Below, piece after piece: positions 5,857-45,203 of a stretch of DNA of 64,000 bases (position 1 is its first letter; each line of letters starts with the position of its first letter). The stretch is from contig CAYXNX010000004.1 in assembly GCA_964467035.1 (NCBI GenBank), positions 89-64,088 of the forward strand. Direction: 5' to 3'. The translations under genes were made by a program, and so were the position numbers. This DNA is from Candidatus Woesearchaeota archaeon (GTDB taxonomy: Archaea > Nanobdellota > Nanobdellia > Pacearchaeales > GW2011-AR1). The notes beneath the pieces are model-generated. The model searched no databases. It saw nothing but the letters and a program-made list of their open reading frames with translations, and was not told where the DNA came from.

Positions 5857-5992
5857 GATTAAAATGTAAAAAAGGATTTAATAGAAAATTGGGGAAAAAT
5901 CCAAGCAATACATTCGAAAGCAAATCTTTTTTACATGGAAAAATAATTTGGACTTCCATAAATAGAACAACATTCTGAGTAATATTTCGTAT

Positions 5993-6136
5993 AACATCGA
6001 AATTTAACGAAGTCGCCGAAGGCGGTTTGGAAAACCGAAGTACAATAAGGTTTCCGTTAAATTCCTGTTATGTCTCCCGACGACTGAAAGGAGGAGAGCG
6101 CAGCGTGGTCGACCGAAGGGAGAAGCGCAGCGTCCC
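5993..6136 (+). repeat. G+C-rich modular junction element E1 (AACATCG left module, CTGTTAT core at 6065-6071, RM-1 right module)
   Basis: Positions 6060-6108 are identical over 49 nt to 32013-32061. The left part parallels 30515-30589. Hairpins cgcc-gaa-ggcg and aaaacc..ggtttc. Confidence 0.75.
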
Positions 6137-6142
6137 TTTAAG

Positions 6143-6376
6143 TTACGAGCCAGCTTTTTGTTTCCTTATTAAAGAATGTATTCCCCAACCTATGATAAAA
6201 CCTATACTTCCGAATAATACGAATAAAAATATTATTGGTAAAAAATCTGTATTGAATTTAGAAAAATCTATGTGTGTATTAGGTAGCCACAACAATGAAG
6301 ATATTCCAATTAATGCTCCAAACCAACTCCCCCACATTTTGAATGGATTGTATAATTTTTTTATTTTATCTGTCAT
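6143..6376 (-). CDS. small membrane protein (cassette cargo)
   Basis: 77 aa with two hydrophobic helices. Flanked by the perfect 11-bp inverted repeat ttacgagccag (6143-6153) / ctggctcgtaa (6425-6435). Confidence 0.45.
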   Translation of the reverse strand: MTDKIKKLYNPFKMWGSWFGALIGISSLLWLPNTHIDFSKFNTDFLPIIFLFVLFGSIGFIIGWGIHSLIRKQKAGS

Positions 6377-6424
6377 ATTATTTTATTGAATTAAATTAAT
6401 ATAAATAACTTTTTATCTTAAAAA

Positions 6425-6590
6425 CTGGCTCGTAATTTCACTTAACGTTCGCGTGTATGAGAAGTTTGCGAAGTAAATTTGGGAAAATTGCGAGCCGAGG
6501 CATTTTTTCTTTTATCCCTTGTTATATGAGGGTGAGCTTGCGAAAGCGCGTAGCGTCTCAGAGGATTTTTTTGTAGAAAAAACCGCAGAG
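6425..6590 (+). repeat. G+C-rich junction element E2 (degenerate core CTTGTTAT at 6518-6525)
   Basis: GNRA-like hairpins (ttgcgaagtaa, cttgcgaaagcg). The right part (gggtgag..gcgtagcg) resembles 33971-34010. Confidence 0.5.
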
Positions 6591-6703
6591 TTGTTTGAAG
6601 GCACTTGTATTAATTTTAAAAATGTCCATTGGGATGGTGGGTTGTTTGATGCCCATTAAATAAGAGAGATTGTCTTTTTGAAAGTTGGAGGGTGGGAAAA
6701 ATT

Positions 6704-7261
6704 CTATTTTGTATCTGTAAAAAATTCTTTTCTAATTTTTATTTTATCTTTACAAGCTTTCCATAAATGATTTGAAAGTGAAAGCCCAGATTTTCTCTTC
6801 CTATCAGTAAAATATGCAAGAATTACATTTATTCCATCTTCAAATAAATCTTTTATGATTGGAACAAAATCAGTATCAGAAGTTAGAACAATTACATCAG
6901 AAATATTTTCTTGTTTTGGAATCCTTGATAAATCAATTGTTAAAAGAGTATCAACTCCTTTTTGTTGGAAAGTATTATCTATTTTTTGACACCTTCCCTC
7001 TCTAACAATAATCCCAACTTCTTTTAATTTTGAAACAAACTTGTCATAATTTGCTTTTCTCCTATTTTCTTCTTTAGTTGGGGTTGAATCTTGATAAGGC
7101 GGAGCGGTGTAAAAATAGATTTTCTTGCACTCAAGATTTTTAGCCTTTGCAAGATTTTTTGCAAAAACTTCCATTTTGTATTTTAGAGGTTTCCCATTGC
7201 CAAAGAATTTAGAAATAAAGGATAAATAACCTGAGTCGATAAATACAATTGTTTCTGCCAT
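6704..7261 (-). CDS. NYN/LabA-like (DUF88) domain protein
   Basis: VFIDSGYL, YFYTAPP, GVDTLLTIDL and VLTSDTDFVPII motifs. Start uncertain (ATG at 7261 or 7273, GTG at 7294). Confidence 0.65.
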   Translation of the reverse strand: MAETIVFIDSGYLSFISKFFGNGKPLKYKMEVFAKNLAKAKNLECKKIYFYTAPPYQDSTPTKEENRRKANYDKFVSKLKEVGIIVREGRCQKIDNTFQQKGVDTLLTIDLSRIPKQENISDVIVLTSDTDFVPIIKDLFEDGINVILAYFTDRKRKSGLSLSNHLWKACKDKIKIRKEFFTDTK

Positions 7262-7347
7262 TATAAAAAGCATCAGGCAACCCCAAAGGATCACCTGGGA
7301 TTATGTTAATATAAGGAAATATTGGAGATTTATAATACTTTCGGTTG

Positions 7348-7884
7348 CTATTTGGTTTTCTCCCAAATTTTATCAAATACTTGTTTAAATGTTTCTGCAA
7401 AAATCTTGTCTTTTATTAAAAATCCTCTTGGTTGTTTTGTGATAATGTATTGAACATATAGGATATCATCAACAACTCCCCATTCTGCTTCATTTTTTAA
7501 ATCTGTAATTTTAGTCTTTGTATTTTTGTTTTCTCTTTTGGAAGCAAGAGATTTAAACTCTTCGGGAATTAGGATTTTTGCTTTAGCATTAAGTTTATTT
7601 CTTTGTTTATGATGTTCATCGTAAAAAGCAACAAATTTTTCAAAAGCAGGTCTTTTTGTTCCATAAATTCTTTCATTGGAGTTTTTAGTTAAAGAGGAAT
7701 TTATTTCGTGCCACATGGCTTTAATTCCAGAAAGACCTTCAAAGTATTTGTAGTTTGATTGGGGTTCTTCTTTAAGGTCTTTTGTTTTTAGTTTTTTTAC
7801 TAGTTCTTGAATCTCTTGTCTTTCTTGTTCAAGAGATTTTTGTTTTTCAATAAATATTTCGTTTAGAGTTTCAGGACTTTTCAT
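7348..7884 (-). CDS. TrmB-like regulator C-terminal part lacking an N-terminal winged helix
   Basis: Coiled-coil followed by a YFEGLSGIKAMW segment, as seen after the wHTH of TrmB-type proteins. No HTH is present; the start abuts element E3. Confidence 0.35.
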   Translation of the reverse strand: MKSPETLNEIFIEKQKSLEQERQEIQELVKKLKTKDLKEEPQSNYKYFEGLSGIKAMWHEINSSLTKNSNERIYGTKRPAFEKFVAFYDEHHKQRNKLNAKAKILIPEEFKSLASKRENKNTKTKITDLKNEAEWGVVDDILYVQYIITKQPRGFLIKDKIFAETFKQVFDKIWEKTK

Positions 7885-7934
7885 AATTATTAGGGGTATT
7901 GTGAACATTATAAAAGTTTGCCAGTAACCCAATC

Positions 7935-8037
7935 TCTTATAATCGCTGTTAGTTTCTCTGAGGATTGATTTTTAATGCAATATGTCCGAGCGGAATGAAA
8001 TGGAGCGAAGGAGTTGCCCCGAAGCGCGCATTATGGT
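7935..8037 (+). repeat. G+C-rich junction element E3 (core CTGTTAG at 7946-7952, RM-2 right module)
   Basis: The right part aligns with 30597-30650 (gagga-ttgattttta-R-tgcaa..atgYccgaRg). gaatgaaatggagcga also occurs at 33811-33826. Confidence 0.55.
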
Positions 8038-24692: not shown

Positions 24693-24734
24693 AAATAATA
24701 AATTTATAAATAATGATAAATAAGAATAAATAAG

Positions 24735-27700: not shown

Positions 27701-29000
27701 AGGAGAAGTTAAGATAAAAGAGAATAATGTTAAAATAGAGAAAGATTCTAAAAATAAAAACCATACATTTGAAACTGCTTATGCAGAATGGAATGGACAC
27801 ACATACAGATCTGTTATCCATGAAGTCGTTATCCCGGGTTATGGTGGTCCTTTTGATATAGGTGTAGATACTCCTCCTTCAGTCAAGCCTTCTGATGATG
27901 TAAGGGGAGACATAAACCTCATTAATATGAATCTAGATATTGGTAAAGATGTGGAAGTTAATTATTGGATAACTGATACAGAAAATAATGTAATAAACGG
28001 GTTAGAAGGGCAGAAAATGGTTTTTGCGGGGTCATTAGAAAATACATCTACTTTTGGGAAATTGAACTCTCCGTCTATTGAAGGAAATTATAGATTTTGG
28101 GCAGCAGTTACCTGGGCAGATGGGCATAATGCTAGTGCTTTTGATAGTTTTAAGGTAGAATCTGGAGGAGATGAAGGGGGTGGAGGCGGAGGTAGTGCAG
28201 GAGGAATTATAGGGAGTGTGGTGGAAGAACCGGAAAAAGAAACAGAAAAGAAAAAATACTTTGAGTTTGATATAAGTTTACCTCTTAAGAGAATAGAAAG
28301 AAATGAAATATTGTCGATATTAACAGGAATAGAAAATTTAGAACATAATACTTCTAGAGAAGTATCTATTGATTATACTATTGTAGATGAAAATAACAAT
28401 AGTATAATTAATGAAGGGGAAACAAAAACAGTAAATATTTCGAAATGTTTTTCTAAAAATATTTTGATTACCAATCAAACAGAAATAGGAGAATATACTG
28501 TTATAGCAGAATTGAATTATGGAGATTTTTCAACAATTTCAAGGGCAACTTTTGAAATAGTACCTGAAAAGACAAAAAATGTCATTAAAGAAAGTAAAAA
28601 TGTATCCTGTTGTCTTTGGTGTATAATAAGTGTCATATTGCTTTTGATAATAATCATTTATTATTTGTGGAGAATAAACAGGAATAACAACCAGATGGAT
28701 GATTCAGAAATTAAAGAGATTTTAAAAGAATCCATATCTGAAGTAAAATCTAAAATAGATCAAATCAAACCAAATAAACAAATATTAGAGAGGATGTTAT
28801 TAATAGAAAAAGAGGGTAAAAACAGAAAAAATATGAAGAAGACTTTAAAGAAATATATGCAAGAATCCATTTATACAAAACATAATAAAAAAATAGAGAT
28901 CATTTGTTTAATAGCTATAATTGCATTTATAATTTTAGGTTTTATATTATTCTGTTTAAGACCTGAAACATTATGTATTGGAGAAATTATATGGAATTAA
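24735..29000 (+). CDS. large surface protein with repeated Ig-like modules of about 95 aa and C-terminal TM helices
   Basis: N-terminal anchor LLLNIFTLMFFIIILSGLVLAGG. At least 5 modules DDY..(D/N)G.WYN...(Y/K)YC...LRYYS(K/I)DNAGN. A Gly-rich linker and two C-terminal hydrophobic helices. Confidence 0.65.
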   Translation: MPRVKKGEYNRIKKKLLLNIFTLMFFIIILSGLVLAGGNKAVWTYVNKPNGDPAEGANATYRVFLEGDTGGFPESEQCYCVSYPGETASDGSMVDDLRNLKYESTCAFGGREKGDSCGLHWSEGDPIWILADGSTMDPPLGTGNVSDTIDAFGTQKLDNITLSSGPNNPPNIDSVSPGSGNWYNESSSQGISVEVNTNEDSTCRWSKSPMDYSSKPYDFTGTQLTHNYILDLWQENANNIYITCQDSEGANSDEYHLILNKDTTSPVTDDDYSYNGGWYNQNAIINLNEQDSGSGVDTTYYCIDDSDTCSPSQIYSDSVNISDEGTSYLRYYSIDNVGNIQETQSVEVKIEKNAPITETNFTNNNTWVNTTQYVWLNYTDSGNVSGKDWTKYCTDAGCDPSSGTDYTSQVEFSSDQETSFRYASKDNAGNIETTNELIIKIDKTPPTTSDDYTHDGSWYNDNADITLNENCDISGCEWTKYCTGEECNPNTDYTGETIDFSENGTLRYYSKDNAGNIQDVRETTILIDKKAPDINDDYAYDDFWINHSTGTITLTPSDAGGSGLENDPDAVKICGGDGCDPESTSGINSPYELDYSSEQETVYRYQSYDKAGSGSEIGNFTVKIDKTPPNTYDDYAYNDTWNNKNASINLIESDLPDPANSGINITYYCTTDNLNDSCVLETKYIGEKINFFESGVLRYYSKDNAGNTQNAKEAIIKIDKQNISIANASVLIENGSTYSTETTLHFDYFGFEDQAQLSGIDGYYYNFSNNEGTTSGSWDTDQNGVLSGASQGNVSVYVWGKDKAGNIGPAVSDSIIVDSVNPVFSNWNNSQIKMSDSGPMNINVTITDETSGVKGMPSIRYKYGEDSWSEWKNISLVSGQNYTYDIPDPNGWYDYYNENVSWQVRARDNAGNEVDSSIHTFLIGSDEPAPIVIQKKLEFLNETKDFVRYKITDKVHNTLNNTDMSDVQFGDGDIIQNITPPEDTFDIIKGEVKIKENNVKIEKDSKNKNHTFETAYAEWNGHTYRSVIHEVVIPGYGGPFDIGVDTPPSVKPSDDVRGDINLINMNLDIGKDVEVNYWITDTENNVINGLEGQKMVFAGSLENTSTFGKLNSPSIEGNYRFWAAVTWADGHNASAFDSFKVESGGDEGGGGGGSAGGIIGSVVEEPEKETEKKKYFEFDISLPLKRIERNEILSILTGIENLEHNTSREVSIDYTIVDENNNSIINEGETKTVNISKCFSKNILITNQTEIGEYTVIAELNYGDFSTISRATFEIVPEKTKNVIKESKNVSCCLWCIISVILLLIIIIYYLWRINRNNNQMDDSEIKEILKESISEVKSKIDQIKPNKQILERMLLIEKEGKNRKNMKKTLKKYMQESIYTKHNKKIEIICLIAIIAFIILGFILFCLRPETLCIGEIIWN

Positions 29001-29443
29001 AATTTGTATATTCAAGAGTTTATTTCAGACATCTGACTAAATACAAAAAAGCAAATAAAGATTGGAAAGAAGTCAGAAAAATAGGAAAAGAATTTGAAGA
29101 AAAATATAAATCTGAGATAAACAAAATTATAAAAATAATTCCAAAAATTGTTAGAAAGCCTTGGAGAAAAAAAGAAATAGATGTTTATATTGTTGATTGG
29201 GTAGGTCCAAGTTTTTCTCATCCATTAACATTAAAAGTTCGTGAAGATTTATTATTAATGTTAGTTATTTTAACTCACGAACTTTTACATCAATTCTATA
29301 TGGAGGATTTTTATTTAGATGAAGAAGGAAATGAAGCTAAAATCAATGAGGATGTGAAAGAAGTTTTTGAAAAACTTGGACTTGATGTAAAAAAACAATT
29401 AAAAATATTGCAAAGTTATCACAATAAAAGGTTTTCCAAATAG
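28991..29443 (+). CDS. hypothetical protein with HExxH motif
   Basis: About 150 aa with an LTHELLHQF motif. No other recognisable feature. Start uncertain (28973 or 28991). Confidence 0.35.
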   Translation: MELKFVYSRVYFRHLTKYKKANKDWKEVRKIGKEFEEKYKSEINKIIKIIPKIVRKPWRKKEIDVYIVDWVGPSFSHPLTLKVREDLLLMLVILTHELLHQFYMEDFYLDEEGNEAKINEDVKEVFEKLGLDVKKQLKILQSYHNKRFSK

Positions 29444-29469
29444 GTGCACAGAAAATTGATTTTATTATA

Positions 29470-29540
29470 TTAAGCCCTGTTAAATCCGCCGACGAACGAA
29501 GTGAGGAGAATGACATACTCCCTGGCCTAAAGGCAGGGGT
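29470..29540 (+). repeat. junction element E4 (core CTGTTAA at 29477-29483, RM-1-like cgacgaacgaagtgaggaga, bulged hairpin 29518-29539)
   Basis: aagccCTGTTAAATCC is shared with 33626-33641. The RM-1 motif is shared with 34978-34997. Confidence 0.6.
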
Positions 29541-30170
29541 ATCTCTTTAAGAAGTTACAAAGTTGTTTGTCTTAAATCTTTAAATTCAAAATTCCATTCT
29601 TCTTGGGAATACTTAATGTATTGTTCAATTACTTCAGCAGTTACTGCTCCAACACTTCGGAAAAATTTTCCAGGGCTCCATAAATGAGGTTTAACTGTTC
29701 CGTCTCTACTAAAAAAAGCATACCATTGAGTACACTTTTTGAAAAAAATTCTCGCGCTTCCTCCTTTCAAAAATTGTAAAGTCATACTCACCGAAATTGT
29801 CGACGGAACTTGTGCAAAACAATGCACATGGTCTGGCATAACTTTTAACTCAATAATTTCTATTTTATGTTTTTTTGCAACTTGTTTGATTGCATCTTCA
29901 CAAATTTTCCGAGGGTATTCTTTTTTGAAAACCGATACATTGTATTTTGGTCTCCAAACAAAGTGATAAGCACTTTGTCCTATTGCGTGTTTTGTATGTT
30001 TTAATTCCATTTTTCTCCATAGCTTTCGCGCACGAAAGCAAACATTTATTTAGTTTGAGAAAGTTTCAACTAGGCAATTTTATGGCGGTTTAACCGCCTT
30101 CTTTCTCGTAATAAATAAGTTTTTTAGAAATAAATACATTTGCACCTCGTCTTAAAAGACGAGGCAGCAG
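29500..30170 (-). mobile_element. IS200-like element (tnpA only); ends approximate
   Basis: Y1 transposase ORF flanked by subterminal hairpins: 29518-29539 downstream, and 30022-30039, 30084-30098 and 30145-30164 upstream. No tnpB/iscB. Confidence 0.5.
29555..30010 (-). CDS. tnpA: IS200/IS605-family Y1 (HUH) transposase TnpA
   Basis: 151 aa. YHFVWRPKY start, HUH motif PDHVHCF, LKGGSARIF, LWSPGKFFRSVG and the catalytic-Tyr region VIEQYIKYS. Confidence 0.85.
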   Translation of the reverse strand: MELKHTKHAIGQSAYHFVWRPKYNVSVFKKEYPRKICEDAIKQVAKKHKIEIIELKVMPDHVHCFAQVPSTISVSMTLQFLKGGSARIFFKKCTQWYAFFSRDGTVKPHLWSPGKFFRSVGAVTAEVIEQYIKYSQEEWNFEFKDLRQTTL

Positions 30171-30241
30171 ATATATTGTAGCGCAGCGGAGTGCGGAGTG
30201 AAACGGAGCAAGTTTTTCCTTTGGCGTTTTGAATACAAAAT

Positions 30242-30249
30242 TTTAAATA
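30242..30249 (+). promoter_or_regulatory. TATA-box-like element about 30 nt upstream of ATG 30272 (leaderless layout)
   Basis: tttaaata. The same spacing is seen at four other cassette genes. Confidence 0.4.
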
Positions 30250-30271
30250 TAACTTAGAATTCTTTAATACC

Positions 30272-30487
30272 ATGGCATTATTAACAGAAACTTCTGCAAA
30301 ATTATTGGAGGAAATGTGCGAAGATAGAACGGGAAAATCATTACAAGAATTTTCAGAACAAGATTTTCCAAGAGATTACTCTCCCGAATTAGAACAGAAA
30401 AGAGCAGAAGTTTCAAAATACAGATTAACCAAACCATCTACAACGCCATGGTATAATCCTCAAAGAATTCTAAGACATTTTAGATAG
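30272..30487 (+). CDS. hypothetical small protein
   Basis: 71-aa ORF with a TATA at -30. Terminates in TAG. No recognisable family. Confidence 0.4.
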   Translation: MALLTETSAKLLEEMCEDRTGKSLQEFSEQDFPRDYSPELEQKRAEVSKYRLTKPSTTPWYNPQRILRHFR

Positions 30488-30514
30488 TTTATAGCCAAAT
30501 GAAAAATTTCGTTG

Positions 30515-30660
30515 AACATCGCGATTAAACGAAGTCGCCTAAGGCGATTTGGGTGGAGAAACCTGCAAGGTTTCGGAACCGTTAAATTCCTGTTAGTTTC
30601 GTCCGAATATTTAGAGGACTTGATTTTTAGTGCAACGATGCCGAAGGCAAAAAATCAAAG
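30515..30660 (+). repeat. junction element E5 (AACATCG left module, core CTGTTAG at 30590-30596, RM-2 right module with hairpin 30620-30660)
   Basis: The left part parallels E1 and 33533-33630. The hairpin is repeated in inverse orientation at 56190-56229. Confidence 0.7.
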
Positions 30661-30796
30661 TTTTTGGATTACTGATAAATTTCGACCGCAGAGAGTATAT
30701 ATGTCCAAAGGAAGAGAGAGTAGGGTGTCTTGTTTTGGTTCTTTTCTAAAAGAACATTTAGGGTCGTCATTTGTCATTTTCTGGGCTACCAAAAGA

Positions 30797-30804
30797 TTTA
30801 TATA
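30797..30804 (+). promoter_or_regulatory. TATA-box-like element about 30 nt upstream of ATG 30829
   Basis: tttatata. Overlaps the left inverted-repeat arm at 30788-30800. Confidence 0.4.
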
Positions 30805-30828
30805 GTAATTGTATTATTGATTATACAT

Positions 30829-31419
30829 ATGTATAAAAAGATAAGATTTACAGAAAATACCTTGCAAGTATTATCTTTATTTACGAACGATTTTAATAGA
30901 GAATATTATATTCGAGAAGTTGAAAAATTACTAAAAATTAGTCCGAGAACATCACAGCTTATTCTTGAGGATTTGGAAAATAAAGGAGTGATAGAATCAA
31001 AAACTAAGGGCAAGATTAAAACATTTAAATTAAATCCAAGCGAGTTCACTAAAAGGTATCTTGCTTTCGTAGAACAATATAAAGCGATTGCATTTTTAGA
31101 AAAGAAACTTTTGATTAAAGAAATAATAGAAAAGATCATTCCCAATATTAAAGGAATCGGCATAATTTTTGGAAGTTATGTTAAAGGATTAGAAAAAGAA
31201 GGTTCTGATTTGGATATTTTTATTGTAGGAAGTTATAACAATGACGAAATAAAAAAAATTTCAAAAAATTTAGGTATAGAGATAAGTATTAAATGTTATC
31301 CTCTGAAAACATTTGAGAAGAATCTAAAAAAAGATATCCTTCTGAAAGAAGTTTTAAAAAATCATGTAGTTTTTCTAAATGTAGAACAATTTATACAGAA
31401 GGTCTTCAAAAATGGATAA
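30829..31419 (+). CDS. nucleotidyltransferase (MNT-like) with N-terminal winged helix
   Basis: GSYVKGLEKEGSDLDIFIVGS matches the minimal nucleotidyltransferase signature. N-terminal wHTH-like segment. Overlaps the HEPN gene by 8 nt. Confidence 0.75.
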   Translation: MYKKIRFTENTLQVLSLFTNDFNREYYIREVEKLLKISPRTSQLILEDLENKGVIESKTKGKIKTFKLNPSEFTKRYLAFVEQYKAIAFLEKKLLIKEIIEKIIPNIKGIGIIFGSYVKGLEKEGSDLDIFIVGSYNNDEIKKISKNLGIEISIKCYPLKTFEKNLKKDILLKEVLKNHVVFLNVEQFIQKVFKNG

Positions 31420-31894
31420 AATAAAATGGTGTGCTGAGAAAAAAGGAGGATTAAGTTTAGTTGAGCCAAACTCTGATCTCGCAAATGCTTATATCAAGAA
31501 AGCGGAAGAAGCACTTGAATCAATGAGGGTAAACATAATTAAAGATTGGAAAATCTCAACAGCATACTATACAATCTATTTCTCATTATACGCTGTCTTG
31601 ATGAAATTGGGTATAAAATGTAAGATTCATTCTTGTACTATTGAATTTGCAAAAAGATTCCTCGAAGAATATTTTGAAGAAGCAGAGTTAAATTTTACTG
31701 AGGACTCATTAAAAGCTAGAGTCGATTCCCAATATTATATAGACCGAACTGTTCCAGATGAGCAATATAACAAAATGATTCAAAAAGCTCCTGAATTTCT
31801 AGTTAAGTGCAAATCTGTTATTATCAAATTAAACGAGAAAAAGGTTAATGAGATAAGAGATAAATTTCAAAAGGAAATAAGCAAGAGGAGATAA
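31412..31894 (+). CDS. HEPN-domain protein (partner of the MNT)
   Basis: 160 aa, helical. N-terminal AYIKKAEEALESMR is typical of HEPN. Translationally coupled to the upstream nucleotidyltransferase. Confidence 0.7.
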   Translation: MDKIKWCAEKKGGLSLVEPNSDLANAYIKKAEEALESMRVNIIKDWKISTAYYTIYFSLYAVLMKLGIKCKIHSCTIEFAKRFLEEYFEEAELNFTEDSLKARVDSQYYIDRTVPDEQYNKMIQKAPEFLVKCKSVIIKLNEKKVNEIRDKFQKEISKRR

Positions 31895-31956
31895 TTAAAT
31901 GAATACTAAACAGATAATTAACAAGAAAGCTGAATATTGGAAAAAGTGATTACCAG

Positions 31957-32141
31957 TAAATCTTTTGGTTTCAAATTATATTTCTATTTAGCCCGAATTC
32001 TGAATTAGACATAATTCCTGTTATGTCTCCCGACGACTGAAAGGAGGAGAGCGCAGCGTGGCAAAATCCGAAGGATTTTGAGTTCAGAATTCGGGCGTAT
32101 TTGATATTAACTTCAGAGTAGTAAAAGAACCGAAAGATTTA
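31957..32141 (+). repeat. junction element E6: nested-stem structure with core CTGTTAT at 32018-32024
   Basis: Stems 31957-31970/32128-32141 (13 of 14), 31991-32004/32083-32096 (14/14), 32007-32014/32021-32028 (8/8) and 32062-32069/32073-32080 (8/8). Confidence 0.8.
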
Positions 32142-32145
32142 TAAA
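32138..32145 (+). promoter_or_regulatory. TATA-box-like element 30 nt upstream of ATG 32168
   Basis: tttataaa. Overlaps the inverted-repeat arm at 32128-32141. Confidence 0.4.
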
Positions 32146-32167
32146 GATTAGACTTATTCTAAAATAC

Positions 32168-32461
32168 ATGAAAAAAGAAATAATCCCAAGGTATAATATT
32201 GAAGTTCCAACACTAGAGGAACAGCTAAAAGAAGAAGGATTCAAAAGAGTAGCTGAACTTGAAGCAAGAGCTGATGGAAGAGTGGAACTTCCAATTGATT
32301 TAGTCCCAAATACAAAGGGCGGAAAAAATATTTTTGGTAAACCTTACGCGGAATTGAGAATTGTAAATGCGAGAGAAGTTAGCCCATTTGAAAAGAGCGA
32401 TAGAAAATATTTTGTTTACCAAAAAATAGAAGAAAGCCCATATGTATTTGAACAAGAATAA
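32168..32461 (+). CDS. hypothetical protein (cassette cargo)
   Basis: 97-aa ORF with a TATA at -30. Bracketed by perfect inverted repeats. Confidence 0.5.
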   Translation: MKKEIIPRYNIEVPTLEEQLKEEGFKRVAELEARADGRVELPIDLVPNTKGGKNIFGKPYAELRIVNAREVSPFEKSDRKYFVYQKIEESPYVFEQE

Positions 32462-32600
32462 ATCTTTCGGTTTCTATCTTTTAGCCCGAATTCTGATTAG
32501 ACATAATCGCTGTTATACGCCCCGACGAGTGAAACGAGGAGAGCCTGCAAGGCGTGGTCGGAGCGAAGCGACGAAGAAGTGGTGTGAGTTTTCGTTAAAT
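32459..32600 (+). repeat. junction element E7 (core CTGTTAT at 32510-32516)
   Basis: The left part gcccgaattctga-ttagacataat equals the E6 left part. Positions 32539-32570 are identical over 32 nt to 33666-33697. Confidence 0.75.
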
Positions 32601-32603
32601 GAT

Positions 32604-33062
32604 TTAGAGTAGCCTTCGTTTTATTTTTATTAATAAAAAAGTTAATACTATATAAAAAAATCCGATGCAAATTATATAGTAATTTGGAAATGTTTTAAAA
32701 AAAAGAAAAAATCCAAAAGCGTAAGCTATTCCTAAAAAGATTCCTGAAGATGTCCTTAAAATATTATTGCCTTTGGATTTTTTAAAAGCAGATATTGACC
32801 AATCAATTAAAGCAAATATGGGGAAAAAAGCAATTACAAAATAATATAAATTTTTATTTGGTATTTGAAAAGTTAATAACACTATTCCTAAGAGAATTCC
32901 TAAATATACTCCAAGACAACGAGAACAAAAAGCAATTTGTTTATTTTTAATTTTAAATAAATAGCATTTATAATAATCTTCTTTTTTATGATGAGAAAGA
33001 ATATACTTAGAGACTTCACTTAATCCCCTTTTTAATTCTTTTAGTAAATAATTTAGTCCCAT
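32604..33062 (-). CDS. DUF2085-like membrane protein
   Basis: 152 aa with CSRCLGVYLG followed by 4 hydrophobic helices. Confidence 0.5.
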   Translation of the reverse strand: MGLNYLLKELKRGLSEVSKYILSHHKKEDYYKCYLFKIKNKQIAFCSRCLGVYLGILLGIVLLTFQIPNKNLYYFVIAFFPIFALIDWSISAFKKSKGNNILRTSSGIFLGIAYAFGFFLFFKTFPNYYIICIGFFYIVLTFLLIKIKRRLL

Positions 33063-33093
33063 ATTATTAACTAAATATAAGTAGAATAAAAAT

Positions 33094-33432
33094 TTATCCG
33101 TATTTTGCTTTAAATGCAGAATCGGTCATTGTTAAATAAATTATTCCTTCAATTAAACCAATTATTGCAGGAATGAAAGTCCAAAAAAAACACAAATACA
33201 AAATTCCCATTCCAATATCTTCTAAATAAAATTTGTGTGCACCGATTCCGCCAAGTAAAATTCCTAAAAGGCCTGCGGCAACTTTGTTTTTTTCCCTTCC
33301 AGAAAATGAATGATGACTTCTTTGTCTAACGCCACATTTTGGGCATATTTCTGCTTCTTTTTTTATAACTTCTCCACAAGAAGAGCAATAAGCTTCATCG
33401 GATTTTTTTTCTTTCTTGTCTTTTTGAACCAT
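33094..33432 (-). CDS. zinc-ribbon plus TM2-domain membrane protein
   Basis: CSSCG..x..CPKCG zinc ribbon, then AGLLGILLGGIGAHKFYL, which is typical of the TM2 domain. Confidence 0.7.
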   Translation of the reverse strand: MVQKDKKEKKSDEAYCSSCGEVIKKEAEICPKCGVRQRSHHSFSGREKNKVAAGLLGILLGGIGAHKFYLEDIGMGILYLCFFWTFIPAIIGLIEGIIYLTMTDSAFKAKYG

Positions 33433-33532
33433 ATTTATATTTAAAGAAATATAGAACTTTATAAACTTTTTTATTTTTTAAGGGGGCTACTCTTCTAACG
33501 AAGATGTCTAGAAAATTCACACTATTGCAATT

Positions 33533-33720
33533 AACATCGCGATTAAGGAAAGTTAATTTCTCCCGCGAGTGTAACGAGCTGGCTGAGAAATTAATTTAGG
33601 AAAATCCTGCAAGGATTTTCTGTTTAAGCCCTGTTAAATCCTCTGAACAAAATCTTTGATTTTGTGAGAGCCTGCAAGGCGTGGTCGGAGCGAAGCGGAG
33701 GGCGTAAGTCCCAATCTCCA
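33533..33720 (+). repeat. junction element E8 (AACATCG left module, core CTGTTAA at 33631-33637)
   Basis: Hairpins 33553-33562/33585-33594 (10 bp) and 33599-33620 (gaaaatcc-tgcaa-ggattttc). Shares a 32-nt block with E7. Confidence 0.7.
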
Positions 33721-33832
33721 TTATATTCTCAAACTTCCAAAAAATAGAATCTTTGATTCGTCATTTTTTGAGGATGTTTGGCGAGCATCTTTTCGATGCG
33801 AAGAGTCGCGAAATGAAATGGAGCGATTGGAT

Positions 33833-33960
33833 ATAAGGGGTGTTAATCGACCCCAAATACTTGGAGAGGCACGAGTTCTTCAGATATTTGTTGGAAGTGA
33901 GTTTTGCGTTGGGCGGGGTCTTGATAATAGAAGGGTTGTGGGGAGCAAAATTTTGATTAA
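33833..33960 (+). repeat. L repeat copy 1 (noncoding element of about 125 nt)
   Basis: About 90% identical by eye to 34840-34964 and 36134-36259. Indels between copies break any reading frame. Confidence 0.9.
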
Positions 33961-34015
33961 CCCCTGTTATACAGGGGGTGAGGAGCGTAGCGACGAAAGC
34001 GTAGCGTTCCATTGC
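33961..34015 (+). repeat. junction element E9 (core CTGTTAT at 33964-33970 inside the hairpin cccctgt-tat-acagggg)
   Basis: Followed by gtgaggagcgtagcgacgaaagcgtagcg, a gcgtagcg..cgaaag..gcgtagcg hairpin-like tract. Confidence 0.6.
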
Positions 34016-34031
34016 GTCAAGAAATTGGGCA

Positions 34032-34775
34032 TTACTTCTTCTTAAACTTGAACAAAATAAAAGTTGGCAAAGTTGTTGTTAATCTATATTTTTCAGAATC
34101 ATATTTTTTAGATATTTTAGTTGGCTCAGCATCTTTATAATCGATTAATTCAAATCCATTATTTATTCCTGCTTTAATCAGTGTTTCATAGGTAAAATTA
34201 CAAAGTTCCACTTTTCCTAAACTTCCTAAATCATTTGGTTTTGGGGTTTCATCAAAATAATTGCCAAAAATTATTCTTTTTCTATAAGATTGTTTTTTTA
34301 CACCAATCATGTGTTCCTTAGTTTGATTGATTAGATTAAAAATTGGGTGGCCTGTTGAAAAACAAAAAATCCCTTTTTTCTTTAAAACACGATTTACTTC
34401 TTTGAATAATTTGTTAATGTCTTTGATGTAATGTATTGCTAAACTTGAATAAACAATATCAAAAGTTGAATCTTCATGTTTTAACTTTTTACTCATATCT
34501 CCAACATAGAAATTAGAATCAGGAATTTTTTGTTGATTTGCAAATTTGACTAATTCTTTACTAATGTCAAATCCAACCAATTTTTTATAATTTTGCTTAG
34601 ATAATTTTTGAGCATGATCCCCAAAACCACAACCCATATCTAGAATAACTTTGTTTTTTACATCACCAATGATTTTAATTAAAGCAGGAACTTCAATATC
34701 TCGATTATAATCAAATCGCGTTTTATCTTTTCTTCGCTCTAAATAATGCTGAGCCAATTTATCATATTCTGCCAT
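34032..34775 (-). CDS. class I SAM-dependent methyltransferase
   Basis: VILDMGCGFGDH (motif I), DIVYSSLAIHY and KKGIFCFS motifs. Confidence 0.85.
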   Translation of the reverse strand: MAEYDKLAQHYLERRKDKTRFDYNRDIEVPALIKIIGDVKNKVILDMGCGFGDHAQKLSKQNYKKLVGFDISKELVKFANQQKIPDSNFYVGDMSKKLKHEDSTFDIVYSSLAIHYIKDINKLFKEVNRVLKKKGIFCFSTGHPIFNLINQTKEHMIGVKKQSYRKRIIFGNYFDETPKPNDLGSLGKVELCNFTYETLIKAGINNGFELIDYKDAEPTKISKKYDSEKYRLTTTLPTFILFKFKKK

Positions 34776-34839
34776 ATATATAGACTACTTTGCCAACAAT
34801 ATAAATCTTTTTGTTCTGAGCCCAATTTCTTGATTTCGT

Positions 34840-34964
34840 ATAAGGGTGTTAATCGACCCCAAATACTTGGAGAGGCACGAGTTTTTCAGATATTTGTTTG
34901 AGTGAGTTTTGCATTGGGGGTGTCTTGACAATAGAAGGGTTGTGGGAAGCAAAATTTTGATTAA
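34840..34964 (+). repeat. L repeat copy 2
   Basis: See copy 1. Immediately followed by tcgCTGTTAT (core at 34968-34974). Confidence 0.9.
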
Positions 34965-35042
34965 TCGCTGTTATCTGTCCCGAACGAAGTGAGGAGAGTG
35001 CAACGTGCCCGAGCCGAAGGCGAAAGAGTTTTTGAAAATGCC
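34965..35042 (+). repeat. junction element E10 (core plus RM-1-like cgaacgaagtgaggagag; gagccgaaggc hairpin)
   Basis: Read directly. Ends in the inverted-repeat arm at 35029-35042. Confidence 0.6.
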
Positions 35043-35105
35043 GTTCATCAAGGACGAAGTCCCATTAGTTTAAAGAATCAAGGTGTAAACTCAAGAAGCA
35101 CAATG

Positions 35106-35113
35106 TTTATAAT
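35106..35113 (+). promoter_or_regulatory. TATA-box-like element 30 nt upstream of ATG 35136
   Basis: tttataat. Confidence 0.4.
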
Positions 35114-35135
35114 AATTCATAATTTCCACTAATTT

Positions 35136-35801
35136 ATGGCTTCAAATTTAGAGAATCTTCATCAGTGGGCATCTTCAAAATATGAGAATTATCTATCTAT
35201 GATAGCTATTGGTTCAATTGCGGTGGGAGATGCTTGGATTGAGGGAAGAAGCGATCATGACATTCTTCTTGTTTTTGAAGAATATCCTCAAAGCATTGCT
35301 TCAGATTTAGAAGGATATCTTCAAAATTCTGAATTTGATGAAACTTACCTATTCACACCATTACCAAAATCTGTGTTAATAGGCCCAAAAAATCATAGTC
35401 ATGATTTCTCAAACAAATTCAGAAGTAAGACTCTCTATGGAATTGATTTAATCCCTGAAGTTAAATTACCAACAGATGAAGTGATTAAATCATTGTATGA
35501 AAGTGGTTTAGAGAGTGTTACGAGAAGAATGTCGCATAGAATTGCCCACGCTTCTTTATGGACTGATGAAAAAGCCAGAAATGTTTTTTGGAAATTATTC
35601 AAGCATTCATTTATGAATTTAGCAATAAGAGCTTATGCAACATCTGGAAATTATCCAAGAAAAAGGGAAGATGTTGTAAAACATTATGATTCTGATGAAT
35701 TAAAAGTCGTATTAGAAACATTGAATACAATTAATGAACAACCAAGAGAAAATATTGTTTCTGCTGCGAAAGGATTGGTTGGCTATATTAAGCGACTTTG
35801 A
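35136..35801 (+). CDS. putative nucleotidyltransferase-fold protein
   Basis: GSIAVGDAWIEGRSDHDILLVF matches the G-S-x(9-11)-D-x-D nucleotidyltransferase pattern. The rest is helical. Confidence 0.5.
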   Translation: MASNLENLHQWASSKYENYLSMIAIGSIAVGDAWIEGRSDHDILLVFEEYPQSIASDLEGYLQNSEFDETYLFTPLPKSVLIGPKNHSHDFSNKFRSKTLYGIDLIPEVKLPTDEVIKSLYESGLESVTRRMSHRIAHASLWTDEKARNVFWKLFKHSFMNLAIRAYATSGNYPRKREDVVKHYDSDELKVVLETLNTINEQPRENIVSAAKGLVGYIKRL

Positions 35802-35821
35802 GTTTACCTCATTCTATTTTA

Positions 35822-35915
35822 GGCATTTTCAAAAATTGGATTTAATGCCTGTTATAATCTCCCGTTAGTGACGAGGGATAGCTGCAAGCGGTTTTTTGCG
35901 AAGCAAAAAAATCCT
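35822..35915 (+). repeat. junction element E11 (core CTGTTAT at 35849-35855)
   Basis: Hairpins gctgcaagc and ttttttgcgaagcaaaaaa. Begins with the inverted-repeat arm at 35822-35835. Confidence 0.6.
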
Positions 35916-35935
35916 GAAGAGTTGAATTTAGAAAC

Positions 35936-36082
35936 TTACTTCTTTTTTAATGAGAAGAAAGCGAAGAATGCAAAAAATCCGAAGAATCCGAAAAGCTCGT
36001 AATTTTGAGTAGGTATGCCTAGCAATCCTAATAATCCAAAGATACCAAAATATCCAGCTTTCCATTTATTATCATCTTTCAT
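35936..36082 (-). CDS. small hydrophobic protein (48 aa; below the ORF-track cutoff)
   Basis: My translation is MKDDNKWKAGYFGIFGLLGLLGIPTQNYELFGFFGFFAFFAFFSLKKK. Bracketed by the perfect 14-bp inverted repeat 35922-35935/36114-36127. Confidence 0.4.
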   Translation of the reverse strand: MKDDNKWKAGYFGIFGLLGLLGIPTQNYELFGFFGFFAFFAFFSLKKK

Positions 36083-36133
36083 AATATTTCTGAGGTTCTA
36101 TTTGTTTATTAAAGTTTCTAAATTCAATTGATT

Positions 36134-36259
36134 ATAAGGGGTGTTAATCGACTTCGAATACTTGGAGAGGCACGAGTTCTTCAGATATTTGTTTGAGTGA
36201 GTTTTGCATTGGGGGTGTCTTGACAATAGAGGGGTTGTGGGGAGCAAAATTTTGATTAA
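36134..36259 (+). repeat. L repeat copy 3 (adjacent to the recombinase gene; not followed by CTGTTA)
   Basis: Ends gattaaCAG, so TTAACAG (the reverse complement of CTGTTAA) sits at 36256-36262. Confidence 0.9.
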
Positions 36260-36304
36260 CAGACTTTTAACGAACTCAGTTAATATTTGATAGTTAAAAG
36301 TCTG
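36260..36304. repeat. perfect 12-bp inverted repeat cagacttttaac-N21-gttaaaagtctg upstream of the recombinase gene
   Basis: Arms at 36260-36271 and 36293-36304, read directly. Confidence 0.85.
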
Positions 36305-36367
36305 AAAGAAGCAAAATTAGGTTCAGGGTCTAGAAAAAATTACTATTGTTGAATTGTAAAATATATT

Positions 36368-36377
36368 TTTAAATATA
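36368..36377 (+). promoter_or_regulatory. TATA-box-like element about 27 nt upstream of ATG 36395
   Basis: tttaaatata. Confidence 0.4.
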
Positions 36378-36394
36378 TAGTGTTTAGTGTTATA

Positions 36395-37234
36395 ATGGTT
36401 TATATTCCTTATGACTGGGAAACTTGTTTAAGGAGAAAATGTAAAAGATATAGGTATTCTGACAAAAATGTGAAAAATTATAGTTACTGGATTCAAAGAT
36501 TTTTGAAATGGAATGGGAAGGAATTGAAGTATATTTCAAAAAAAGATGTTAGTGCTTTTTTGCAAAAATTAGATAATCAAAATCTTTCAGGAAATACCTT
36601 AAATCAATGTCATATGACGCTTAAATTCTTATTTGAAGATGTTATGGATAAAAAGATGTAGATAAATATTAAGTATGCAAAAGTGCCTAAAAGAATTCAA
36701 AAAGTTTTGAAAAAAGAAGAAATAAAATTATTAATTAAAAACATTAAAAATTCTAAACACAAAATTATGATTGCTTTGATGTACTCAGCAGGTTTAAGAG
36801 TAAGTGAGTTAATTAATTTAAAAGTTGAAGATTTAGAATTAAAAAATAGATATGGATTTGTGAGAAATGGAAAGGAAGGAAAAGATAGATTATTTATTAT
36901 TTCTGAAAGACTGGCACCTGTTTTAAAACAAATTATTTTAGATAATAATTTGGGAAAAGAAGATTATTTATTTTTAAGTAGAAGAAATAAAAAATATAGT
37001 GTAAGAACAATACAGAAAATTGTTAAGGATGCAAGTAAAAAAGCTGGTCTTGATTTTAAAGAAATTCACCCACATACATTAAGACATAGTTTTGCAACTC
37101 ATTTAATTGAACAAGGAGATTGTGTTGGAGATGTGCAAGCAATGTTAGGACATAAATCTCAGGAAACTTCTTTAAACTATATCCATTCATCAGGGAAAAT
37201 GTTAAATATAAAAAGTCCTTTTGACAGATTATAA
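36395..37234 (+). pseudogene. Xer-like tyrosine recombinase interrupted by one in-frame TAG (36659-36661)
   Basis: The N-terminal SAM-like domain (36395-36658) and the catalytic domain (36662-37234) are in the same frame. Catalytic signature: R in GLRVSEL, HPHTLRH, LGH and Y in LNYIH. No IntI-type insertion. Confidence 0.75.
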
Positions 37235-37235
37235 A

Positions 37236-37928
37236 ATGGTATTTTATTTAATTGGATTGGGATTGGATGAGCGAGGAATTTCAATTCATGGCAAGAGTTT
37301 GATAAGAAATTGTAAAAATGTTTATTTGGAAAATTATACAGTGGATTTTCCCTACACAAAGAAAAAGTTAGAGAAGCAATTAAAAATTAAACTAAAAGAT
37401 GCGCCTCGAGAACTTGTTGAAAGTGAGGAGTTAATTAAATTAGCTAAAAAAGAAAATGTTTGTTTGTTAGTTTATGGAGCTCCCATGAGTGCGACAACAC
37501 ATATTTCTTTGATAGATGATTGTAAAAAAAATAAAGTGAAGTATAAAATTGTTTATGCTGGGAGTATTTTTGATGCTGTTGCTGAAAGTGGGTTAAGTTT
37601 GTATAAATTTGGAAAAACAACATCTTTACCAAAATGGGAAAAAAATTTTGAGCCTAAAAGTTTTATGGAAGTAATAGAGAATAATCAAAAAATTGGAGCA
37701 CACACTTTATTACTTGTGGATATTGGTTTAGAGTTTGAGAAGGCAAGAGATGAAATGGAAAAGGCAGGATTTCAAGGAAAAGTGGTAGTATGTTCAAGAA
37801 TAGGGATTAGAAGTAGATTTTATTTTGGAGAATTAAATGAAATTAAAAGTGAAAAAGTGAAACAACCGTATTGTTTTATTGTTCTTGGAAAACTAAGTAA
37901 AGATGAAGAAGAGAATTTAATTAAGTAA
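37236..37928 (+). CDS. dph5: diphthine synthase
   Basis: MVFYLIGLGLDERGISIHG, VYLENYT and LVYGAPMSATTH motifs. The start lies 1 nt after the recombinase stop. Confidence 0.8.
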   Translation: MVFYLIGLGLDERGISIHGKSLIRNCKNVYLENYTVDFPYTKKKLEKQLKIKLKDAPRELVESEELIKLAKKENVCLLVYGAPMSATTHISLIDDCKKNKVKYKIVYAGSIFDAVAESGLSLYKFGKTTSLPKWEKNFEPKSFMEVIENNQKIGAHTLLLVDIGLEFEKARDEMEKAGFQGKVVVCSRIGIRSRFYFGELNEIKSEKVKQPYCFIVLGKLSKDEEENLIK

Positions 37929-38021
37929 AACTTAAAAACCCATTTTTTCTTAAATAAAGATGGCTATAAACCAAACGAATAAGATTGGAATTATTTCTAT
38001 TATAGCTATTATTATTTGATT

Positions 38022-44693: not shown

Positions 44694-45203
44694 TTATTTA
44701 CTCCTTTGCCCTGAGGCATTCCTAAAATAAATAAAGAGGGTTTATAAATGATTGGAATAAAATTAACAAAGTTTAGGATTATACATTTAGGGTAAAAATA
44801 GGGAGTTTATAAAAAACTAAAGATTTGAATATTGTAGAAAATTATTGGAAGTGTATTTGTTTAAATTCAGAATTAAAGAAATTTCAAGCAGTATAATTAT
44901 ATGAAAAAGGGTGTTTAAATTTTATTAAAGTAGAATAATTTGAAAATAATTTTAAGAATAGGATGTAGAGAGTAGCAAGGTTTTGATGTTTTGGGATTAA
45001 GGTGCAGAGTTTAAAAAATGATAGGGATTATACAAGAGTTAATTGATAGTGTTGATAAGATAAAGAAATTATTAATAGTAACTTTTAAAACCCCTTTATA
45101 ATTCTATGAAATATACTAGATAGGAAGAAATGCCTAAAAATAAATGCTTTGCGATTTTCATTCGTCTAAAATTCCGGTTTCGAATGAGTAATCGAACAAT
45201 TAT

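Follow-up and report, generated by a model that had tools for sequence, protein, structure and literature searches.

A non-coding repeat bounded by XerA/dif-type sites, probably a cargo-less module, beside an archaeal XerA-like recombinase gene

Results

Three copies of a non-coding unit

We examined a repeat, here called L, in a 64,000-nt stretch of contig CAYXNX010000004.1 from a Candidatus Woesearchaeota archaeon (“the window”; positions are counted from its first nucleotide). L is about 122 nt long and is present three times on the + strand, spread over 2.4 kb, in an array of recombination sites that lies directly upstream of a gene for a XerA-like tyrosine recombinase (36395..37234, + strand, about 279 amino acids, with the domains Phage_int_SAM_4 and Phage_integrase). 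The copies are at 33837..33960 (copy 1, 124 nt), 34844..34964 (copy 2, 121 nt), and 36138..36259 (copy 3, 122 nt), where the limits of the unit are defined by the sites that flank it. A repeat finder reported a single family at 33838–33958, 34844–34964, and 36139–36259. The copies are 93–94% identical in pairs if gap columns are excluded and 90–93% identical if gap columns are included, in agreement with the initial annotation of this locus, which had placed three copies of about 90% identity here. Single nucleotides are inserted at two places in copy 1, and one G is missing at the left edge of copy 2. The 50–60 nt on either side are unrelated between copies (10–37% identity), so the boundaries of L are sharp. 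Three copies of about 122 nt that are over 90% identical and lie within 2.4 kb cannot be due to chance. We found no copies outside the array elsewhere in the 64-kb window. Also, a 942-nt contig from an independent k-mer assembly (Logan; L091) of SRR11308339, a public sequencing run that contains this organism, is identical to positions 33932–34873 and breaks 29–30 nt inside copies 1 and 2, as expected for a true repeat in the source DNA.

We rejected L as a coding sequence because translation of all six frames gave no reading frame that is common to the three copies. On the minus strand, one frame stays open through copies 2 and 3, but it lacks a start codon and is interrupted in copy 1. Open reading frames (ORFs) of at least 50 amino acids span copies 1 and 2 and have no equivalent at copy 3; those across copy 1 had already been called spurious, rightly.

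Sites at both edges of every copy

The initial annotation noted a CTGTTAT core next to L. We read this core as the right-hand half of a site that is built like Xer/dif sites: a 12-nt arm that ends in TAA, a 6-nt spacer of the form NNNCTG, and an arm that starts with TTA (for example, AATTAGACATAA-TTCCTG-TTATGTCTCCC; arms are 11–12 nt long). Copies 1 and 2 were described as ending in gattaa-NNN-CTGTTAT and continuing into different modules, and the sequence is as described. However, fusion to the core at the right edge is only part of the picture, as a dif-type site is present at the left edge of every copy as well. Copy 1 lies between GATTGGATATAA-GGGGTG-TTAATCGACCC (33825..33853, + strand), whose left arm is formed by the end of the 209-nt gene-less module before it, and AATTTTGATTAA-CCCCTG-TTATACAGGGG (33949..33977, + strand), which contains the core of the initial annotation. 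Copy 2 lies between GATTTCGTATAA-GGGTG-TTAATCGACCC (34832..34859, + strand; the spacer has just 5 nt) and AATTTTGATTAA-TCGCTG-TTATCTGTCCC (34953..34981, + strand). To the left of copy 3 is AATTGATTATAA-GGGGTG-TTAATCGACTT (36126..36154, + strand), and to its right, it abuts the recombinase-proximal site. In the copies with an intact spacer, the left edge reads TATAA-GGGGTG-TTAATCGA. These sites are nearly identical to the dif site of Pyrococcus abyssi that was used experimentally, which is ATTGGATATAA-TCGGCC-TTATATCTAAA (Cortez et al. 2010, PMC2958812); read alongside it, the site left of copy 1 is gATTGGATATAA-GGGGTG-TTAATCGA.

Copy 1 is made up of the spacer GGGGTG, the start arm TTAATCGACCC, a unique interior, and the end arm AATTTTGATTAA. 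More generally, the unit consists of a 6-nt spacer and the start arm TTAATCGA, then about 30 nt that resemble the start of other modules, a short unique stretch, and the end arm AATTTTGATTAA, which is the reverse complement of the start arm. (At the termini themselves, TTAATCGA and TTGATTAA are reverse complements at seven of eight positions.) The first 32 nt or so of L align with one subfamily of module starts (TTAGTTTCGTCCGAATACTTGGAGGAC), although by inspection of that alignment L has neither the GYGCARCG motif nor the hairpin with a GAA loop that are described below. In the interior, a G-rich core of 35 nt is bracketed by a small inverted repeat, AGTTTTGC / GCAAAATT.

The interior also has three runs of four to five Gs on the + strand (GGGGG-N15-GGGG-N4-GGGG in copy 3, at 36205–36245). 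Copies 1 and 2 have runs of at least three Gs at matching positions, but these are shorter in copy 2 and interrupted in copy 1, and the G-rich stretch is absent from the one relative of L that we found in another genome (locus L073, see below).

The sites beside L belong to an array of 12 co-oriented sites (29462..36275, + strand), with spacers that start at 29474, 30587, 32015, 32507, 33628, 33837, 33961, 34844, 34965, 35846, 36138, and 36260. The layout AATTGnnnnnTAA-N6-TTAnnnnn is shared by these 12 sites and by sites in over 20 other genomes. (A looser regular expression for the arms was useless in this AT-rich genome.) The stretches between sites are modules, which carry genes on either strand or are gene-less. 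The modules to the left of the L copies are intact up to their own end arms. The module before copy 1 runs from TTAAATCC to GGATATAA. Between copies 1 and 2 is a methyltransferase module (33961..34843, + strand) that starts with TTATAC and ends with GTATAA. Before copy 3 is a module with a gene for a 48-amino-acid membrane peptide on the – strand (the module is at 35846..36137, + strand), and its ends, TTATAATC and GATTATAA, are perfectly self-complementary. Because these modules are complete, L is an independent unit that was inserted between whole modules. Overall, L is a discrete non-coding unit that is bounded by XerA/dif-type sites and has self-complementary ends like those of other modules. 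The cassette-like architecture that had been proposed, with L linked to CTGTTA cores and to the recombinase, is borne out.

The recombinase and the proximal site

The recombinase has over 2,000 relatives of about 279 amino acids (55–76% identity among the best) in assemblies of Nanoarchaeota, Woesearchaeota, and Pacearchaeota. Its best matches in PDB are XerA structures (4a8e, E = 6e-40, and 5hxy, E = 1.6e-36; these are the pair from P. abyssi and T. acidophilum), which rank ahead of IntI4 (2a3v). The best NCBIfam model is NF040815 (recomb_XerA_Arch), at 206.7 bits versus a cutoff of 220. The model for integron integrases (TIGR02249) matches in two pieces (model positions 5–179 and 239–315) with 181 bits versus a cutoff of 265, and model positions 180–238, which correspond to the IntI-specific domain, are absent. 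A XerA/dif-type site (arm, 6-nt spacer, arm) describes the core better than an integron core does, and the domain specific to integron integrases is missing from the recombinase. At 36659–36661, the window's recombinase gene contains an in-frame TAG codon where a tryptophan is near-invariant in 17 aligned relatives. At face value, the gene may be a pseudogene; the alternative is a sequencing error.

The site between L and the recombinase gene (36248..36304, + strand) consists of a variable arm (the end of copy 3, AATTTTGATTAA), the spacer CAGACT, a fixed arm (TTTAACGAAC), 21 nt, and an inverted copy, GTTAAAAGTCTG. The 12-nt inverted repeat of the initial annotation, CAGACTTTTAAC (36260–36271) / GTTAAAAGTCTG (36293–36304), is part of this site and ends 90 nt before the ATG at 36395, as had been described; copy 3 indeed ends in GATTAA,CAG, so that TTAACAG is at 36256–36262.

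To see how far these features extend, we compared loci with a relative of the recombinase in 20-kb pieces of genomes: 79 from species representatives and four more from metagenome assemblies. The proximal site (TAA, CAGNCT, TTTAACGAA) is found in at least 35 of 76 loci, mostly 133–159 nt before the ATG (range 106–224). In several loci, the inverted copy GTTAAAAGTCTG lies 20–40 nt past the site, and in L003 and L004 both sides of the inverted repeat are altered together. Similarity between genomes stops exactly at TAA,CAG: the arm to the left differs in each genome. Read on the minus strand, the proximal site of every genome has the form of an array-type site (AGNCTG-TTA…). This comparison indicates that the attI-like, fixed end of the array is the proximal site and not L, which the initial annotation had offered as a candidate; the conserved element in the loci is the half-site plus inverted repeat to the right of copy 3. 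As a candidate for an empty site, we considered TTTCGTTGAA + CAGACT, which we dropped, as the locus that carries it (L018) has modules upstream. There is no switch in GC skew at 36 kb in the window.

Many contigs end near the proximal site. Of 73 loci (L005–L083), 23 have a contig end in the 300 nt upstream of the recombinase gene, as compared to 4 in the 300 nt downstream. Nine of the contigs that end upstream have a site that can be located, and these reach 3–75 nt beyond TAA,CAG. Such breaks fit with repeats or strain variation upstream of the gene.

Similar arrays in other DPANN genomes

We found modules with a site and hairpins in about 23 genomes of Woese-, Pace-, and Aenigmarchaeota. 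The sites upstream of the recombinase in these genomes read AATTGnnnnnTAA-NNNCTG-TTAnnnnnCCCGA; the next 60 nt or so contain hairpins and a conserved GYGCARCG motif. A hidden Markov model (HMM) of the site plus the module start had 53 hits with E < 1e-3 in 308 kb upstream and 634 kb downstream of the recombinase genes. Fifty of these hits are upstream and on the same strand as the recombinase; the other three are downstream on the opposite strand, and there were none upstream on the other strand or downstream on the same strand. Judged from sequence, then, the array is tied to the XerA-like gene in position and orientation across many DPANN genomes. The same start modules are found in different genomes, where they are attached to different left arms, and genes for nucleotidyltransferase/HEPN proteins and methyltransferases are present in other arrays as well.

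As a general rule, the 8 nt at the two ends of a module are reverse complements of each other. Across 68 intervals between sites, an average of 3.49 of the five variable arm positions match in this way, versus 1.94 ± 0.14 for shuffled partners (the maximum in 5,000 shuffles was 2.43). Thirty-seven of the intervals match at four or more of the five positions (6.7 are expected), and L itself matches at four.

A perfect stem of at least 6 bp follows the GYGCARCG motif in 10 of 40 modules, versus 0.63 expected. The sequences of the stems are unrelated between modules, and 11 of the 14 stems of at least 5 bp have a GAA loop. z-scores for folding of whole modules as DNA were modest on both strands, and RNAalifold predicted no consensus pairs from a MAFFT alignment of module starts, in which hairpins of unequal length misalign. 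The evidence for hairpins is therefore the count of stems together with inspection.

Relatives of L and other gene-less units

Neither a profile search (nhmmer) nor BLAST found anything significantly similar to L in the approximately 940 kb of related loci. A pattern with two anchors was absent from collections of genome and metagenome contigs, a looser motif that is common to L and L026 matched just the L026 organism and chance sequences, and blastn against plasmids and phages found nothing. (A 17-mer did match viral contigs, but by chance.) We looked up two cassette proteins by exact sequence, as a route to alternative junctions; the only matches were short, co-linear contigs of the same sample.

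We found one relative, and only by searching with the termini. Locus L073, also from the Woesearchaeota, has a 76-nt gene-less unit with L-type termini (TGTTAAGCGAC…AAATTTTGATTAA; the full form is TACTTG-TTAAGCGACC…AAATTTTGATTAA). It is present in three identical copies, two in tandem at 8650–8801 and one at 9770–9845 that abuts the proximal site (TAA, CAGTTC, ATATACGAA). The termini are kept between L and this unit, but the interiors differ greatly (122 versus 76 nt). In both genomes, one copy lies directly against the proximal site. The initial annotation had asked about L-like sequences in DPANN genomes: there is this relative beside a recombinase array, and nothing else in the related loci.

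Other gene-less units are found at the same position. L028 has two perfect tandem copies of a 120-nt unit that abut the proximal site (9608–9847); L011 has at least two tandem copies of a 72-nt unit (1–126); L025 has one 97-nt unit preceded by a partial copy (1–114); and L026 and L050 have units of 109 nt and 89 nt, respectively. Two of the contigs from L028, L011, and L025 begin inside tandem copies, which suggests that such repeats cause breaks in assemblies. The proposal that L is recombinase-proximal holds insofar as a copy abuts the proximal site in two genomes and short gene-less units do so in five more; L itself, apart from the relative in L073, is absent from the related loci.

The gene-less proximal units share weak blocks (GGTTGCGAGTT ... 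TGTTTGAG(C)AAAGTTT) at a roughly constant distance from the ATG, such as GTTTGAG-N-AGTT at –193 to –207 in four genomes. When we left out one unit at a time and built an HMM from the others, four of the five omitted units ranked first or second among the new hits in about 1 Mb. The similarity of L to these units is weak (HMM E = 0.5–11; elsewhere in the window, an unrelated sequence gets a better score).

Discussion

L as a cargo-less module

We consider it probable that L is a cargo-less module, or “empty cassette,” of a chromosomal array with XerA/dif-type sites beside a XerA-like gene, and that it was copied by site-specific recombination. We read it as a module without cargo because it has the site, about 30 nt that resemble a module start, an interior with an inverted repeat, and a standard end arm. 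If the ends of L were joined head to tail, they would form a palindromic dif-like site, TTGATTAA-N6-TTAATCGA. The recombinase would excise L and re-insert it at flanking sites, or there would be unequal exchange between sister chromosomes at these sites, and either could give rise to three copies. L would have no product and would persist as little more than a recombination site. Because it would be small and efficient, one copy would tend toward the most active position, against the fixed proximal site. As the arms are specific to each module and yet self-complementary, the two ends of a module would pair at some stage, either in a folded single strand (as for attC of integrons or the CTX phage) or in a cruciform. 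In this genome, the array may now be frozen, since the recombinase gene has a stop codon, the L copies differ by 6–7%, and one spacer is damaged (5 nt).

Several points weigh against this explanation. The mobility of L is deduced from structure alone, since we observed neither an excised circle of L nor an empty site nor an alternative junction. The in-frame TAG in the recombinase gene of this genome is a second difficulty. Third, insertion of a double-stranded circle at the inverted proximal site would give the array the opposite polarity, and how the array grows is not understood; also, duplex DNA of 122 bp would be very stiff as a circle. Fourth, we found no relative of L outside L073 in the related loci or in genome and metagenome contigs. 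Finally, short units like L recur precisely at the proximal position and share weak motifs, which hints at a role in cis.

Such a role would make L a cis-acting accessory part of the recombination platform (a landing pad or accessory arm, like the accessory sequences of cer and psi or the extra integrase-binding repeats of attI) that would aid the recombinase at the proximal site, with the distal copies as by-products of adjacent insertions. This is unlikely in our view, although some evidence favors it: a copy of the L family is directly at the proximal site in both genomes that have the family, gene-less units are at the same position in L011, L025, L026, L028, and L050, and the blocks that are common to these units have a near-constant distance from the ATG and allowed recovery of four out of five units when left out. 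On the other hand, in many loci with sufficient sequence, the proximal site is occupied by an ordinary module with a gene, so a gene-less unit is not required there. The resemblance of L to the other units is weak, interiors vary greatly even between L and its relative in L073, and two of the three copies of L are 1.3–2.4 kb from the proximal site.

It is much less probable that L is a small non-coding RNA gene, or else a promoter, a terminator, or a regulatory RNA element for the genes in neighboring modules. Gene-less cassettes of integrons are known to carry promoters or small RNAs, which provides a precedent, and the TATAA arm at the left edge of L is a conceivable TATA box. The + strand is G-rich, could form hairpins with G-U pairs, and folds with a z-score of –2.25 in copy 3; in copies 1 and 2, though, the z-scores are just –1.2 and –0.6 (all from single-sequence folding), and the minus strand is unstructured (about 0 to –1.1). 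As DNA, L folds no better than shuffled sequence. There was no match in Rfam 15 at E ≤ 1 on either strand of 28000–38000, and the window's only tRNA is at 45203, with no tRNA or tmRNA closer to L. There are too few copies of L for an analysis of covariation, but the indels in copy 1 fall inside predicted stems, and the relative in L073 keeps the termini and not the interior. The gggg/cccc stem that had been described for copies 1 and 2 is, as reported, disrupted in copy 3 (GGGG with CAG), but copy 2 lacks it as well (GGG with TCG), so that the pairing is found in copy 1 only. Neighboring genes face both toward and away from L and have AT-rich upstream boxes of their own. The suggestion that L is a structured RNA is thus not supported, as it lacks an Rfam match and its folding is unconvincing.

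Lastly, L can hardly be a miniature inverted-repeat transposable element (MITE) moved by a transposase such as the array's IS200/IS605-type enzyme, with its place beside the cores due to target preference: it is small and multi-copy, it has terminal inverted repeats (TTAATCGA / TTGATTAA), and the array has a Y1 transposase gene (29555–30010, – strand), but IS200/IS605 elements do not have terminal inverted repeats, the flanks of L have no target-site duplication and are the complete ends of neighboring modules, all copies in the 64 kb are inside the array, and gene-carrying modules in over 20 genomes have the same ends, with the XerA-like gene as the constant partner and the Y1 transposase seen only in the window's array (other arrays were not examined for such a gene). 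Neither this origin nor an RNA gene has positive support in our data.

Comparison to known systems

The array is most like the archaeal Xer/dif system in its parts: the enzyme is XerA-like, inverted arms of 11–12 nt surround a 6-nt spacer, and some of the arms in the array are the same as the P. abyssi arm ATTGGATATAA. Its arrangement is different. The array has a dozen co-oriented sites in 7 kb, each followed by about 60 nt of hairpin-forming sequence, between accessory genes; the five central positions of the arm vary by module; and the array is directly upstream of the recombinase gene, whereas the dif site of Thermococcales is away from xerA.

The pdif modules of Acinetobacter are moved by XerC/XerD and have 28-bp Xer-type sites, with inverted copies at the module ends (PMC6449649, PMC11705084). 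As in our array, discrete modules with accessory genes (toxin-antitoxin-like pairs and enzymes) are bounded by Xer sites, stand in arrays, have inverted ends, and lack a recombinase of their own. However, pdif sites alternate in orientation (XerC/D, then XerD/C), are acted on by two recombinases, and are mostly on plasmids. By the polarity of NNNCTG, all of the sites in our array are direct except for the last, and the orientation expected of pdif is thus not seen; a single XerA-like enzyme is implied, and the array is chromosomal, is anchored to the recombinase gene, and has a hairpin module at each site.

Integrons also have a tyrosine recombinase gene by a fixed site, followed by co-oriented and mostly single-gene cassettes with typical cargo, among which gene-less and duplicated cassettes occur. 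The core of our sites (G,TTA) resembles GTTRRRY, and the start of a cassette is complementary to its own end (core and inverse core). The attC sites of integrons are imperfect inverted repeats (R''-L''...L'-R') of 57–141 nt that fold as one hairpin. In our array, the arms are 6 nt apart and the hairpins are beside the core, whereas in attC a hairpin of 60–140 nt is between the arms. Moreover, the recombinase has no IntI-specific domain, the proximal site is inverted relative to the array, and cassette genes point both ways. Without an IntI domain or attC sites, the array lacks the defining features of an integron. Integrons with canonical IntI and attC have been described from archaea (Ghaly et al. 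2022, PMC9668308); CTGTTA is absent from the supplementary data of that study, and the published example of an archaeal attC is canonical.

We also compared the array to integrative mobile elements exploiting Xer (IMEX), such as the CTX and TLC phages and the gonococcal island (PMC9226527). These elements have no integrase of their own; they occupy Xer sites as tandem units, with dif-like sites on either side. Unlike the units in our array, they are phages or islands of several kilobases with few per genome; our units are single genes or 72–124 nt of non-coding DNA, are numerous, share a module start, and are archaeal. The substrate for integration of CTX is a folded single strand, which is one possible account of the self-complementary arms here.

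In the full-text literature that we searched, we found no description of XerA-linked arrays of modules in archaea, which is not proof of absence. The array of swappable gene modules by a XerA-like gene in many DPANN archaea is apparently undescribed, and L itself is a minor but informative component of it. The many sites per array argue for a role beyond the resolution of chromosome dimers. More tentatively, the array could be an archaeal gene-capture system, an “integron built on Xer,” in which a housekeeping-type XerA and a fixed half-site store and shuffle single-gene modules via dif-like sites on folded single strands (with self-complementary arms and GAA-loop hairpins), and in which L-type units are either cis-acting landing pads or the most active cassettes at the proximal position.

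DPANN archaea have tiny genomes and no well-understood route to accessory genes. If a XerA-type enzyme does build and shuffle these arrays, then gene-cassette platforms arose at least twice from Xer-like recombinases, and the enzyme that resolves chromosomes would also be an engine of gene capture in a major group of archaea. This would also explain why assemblies often break just upstream of the recombinase gene. L-type units would be the smallest natural substrates of the system and hence the most convenient handles for biochemistry.

Other features of the array and its surroundings

The cargo of the window's array includes the IS200-type transposase, a nucleotidyltransferase and HEPN pair, a 97-amino-acid ORF, DUF2085 and TM2 membrane proteins, a SAM methyltransferase, a 221-amino-acid ORF, the 48-amino-acid membrane peptide, and gene-less units including L. 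The methyltransferase gene (34032–34775, – strand) is bracketed by a 14-nt inverted repeat, tcaagaaattgggc / gcccaatttcttga. The nucleotidyltransferase and HEPN pair (30730–31894) is toxin-antitoxin-like, and similar pairs are present in the array of L021. Downstream of the recombinase is a gene for diphthine synthase, as in the closest related contig.

Two more array-type sites, with spacers at 6062 and 7943, lie 28–30 kb upstream on the same strand (6050..7959, + strand), and the site at 6062 has the same start module as the site at 32015. Between this group of sites and the group from 29474 onward are giant ORFs of 4,635 and 1,421 amino acids (10785–29000). With array-type sites on both sides of these ORFs, the region of variation ahead of the recombinase may span about 30 kb.

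A second kind of mini-module is present twice in the window (30503–30592 and 5990–6066). It has a palindrome, AAATTTCGTTGAA-CATCGCGA-TTAAACGAAG, followed by a gene-less unit of about 65–70 nt (TTTAACGAAGTCGCC…CCGTTAAA), and the arms of the palindrome unit resemble the fixed arm of the proximal site. Also, a perfect 32-nt repeat, GAGAGCCTGCAAGGCGTGGTCGGAGCGAAGCG, is at 32539–32570 and 33666–33697, where the same module start is found on two different modules.

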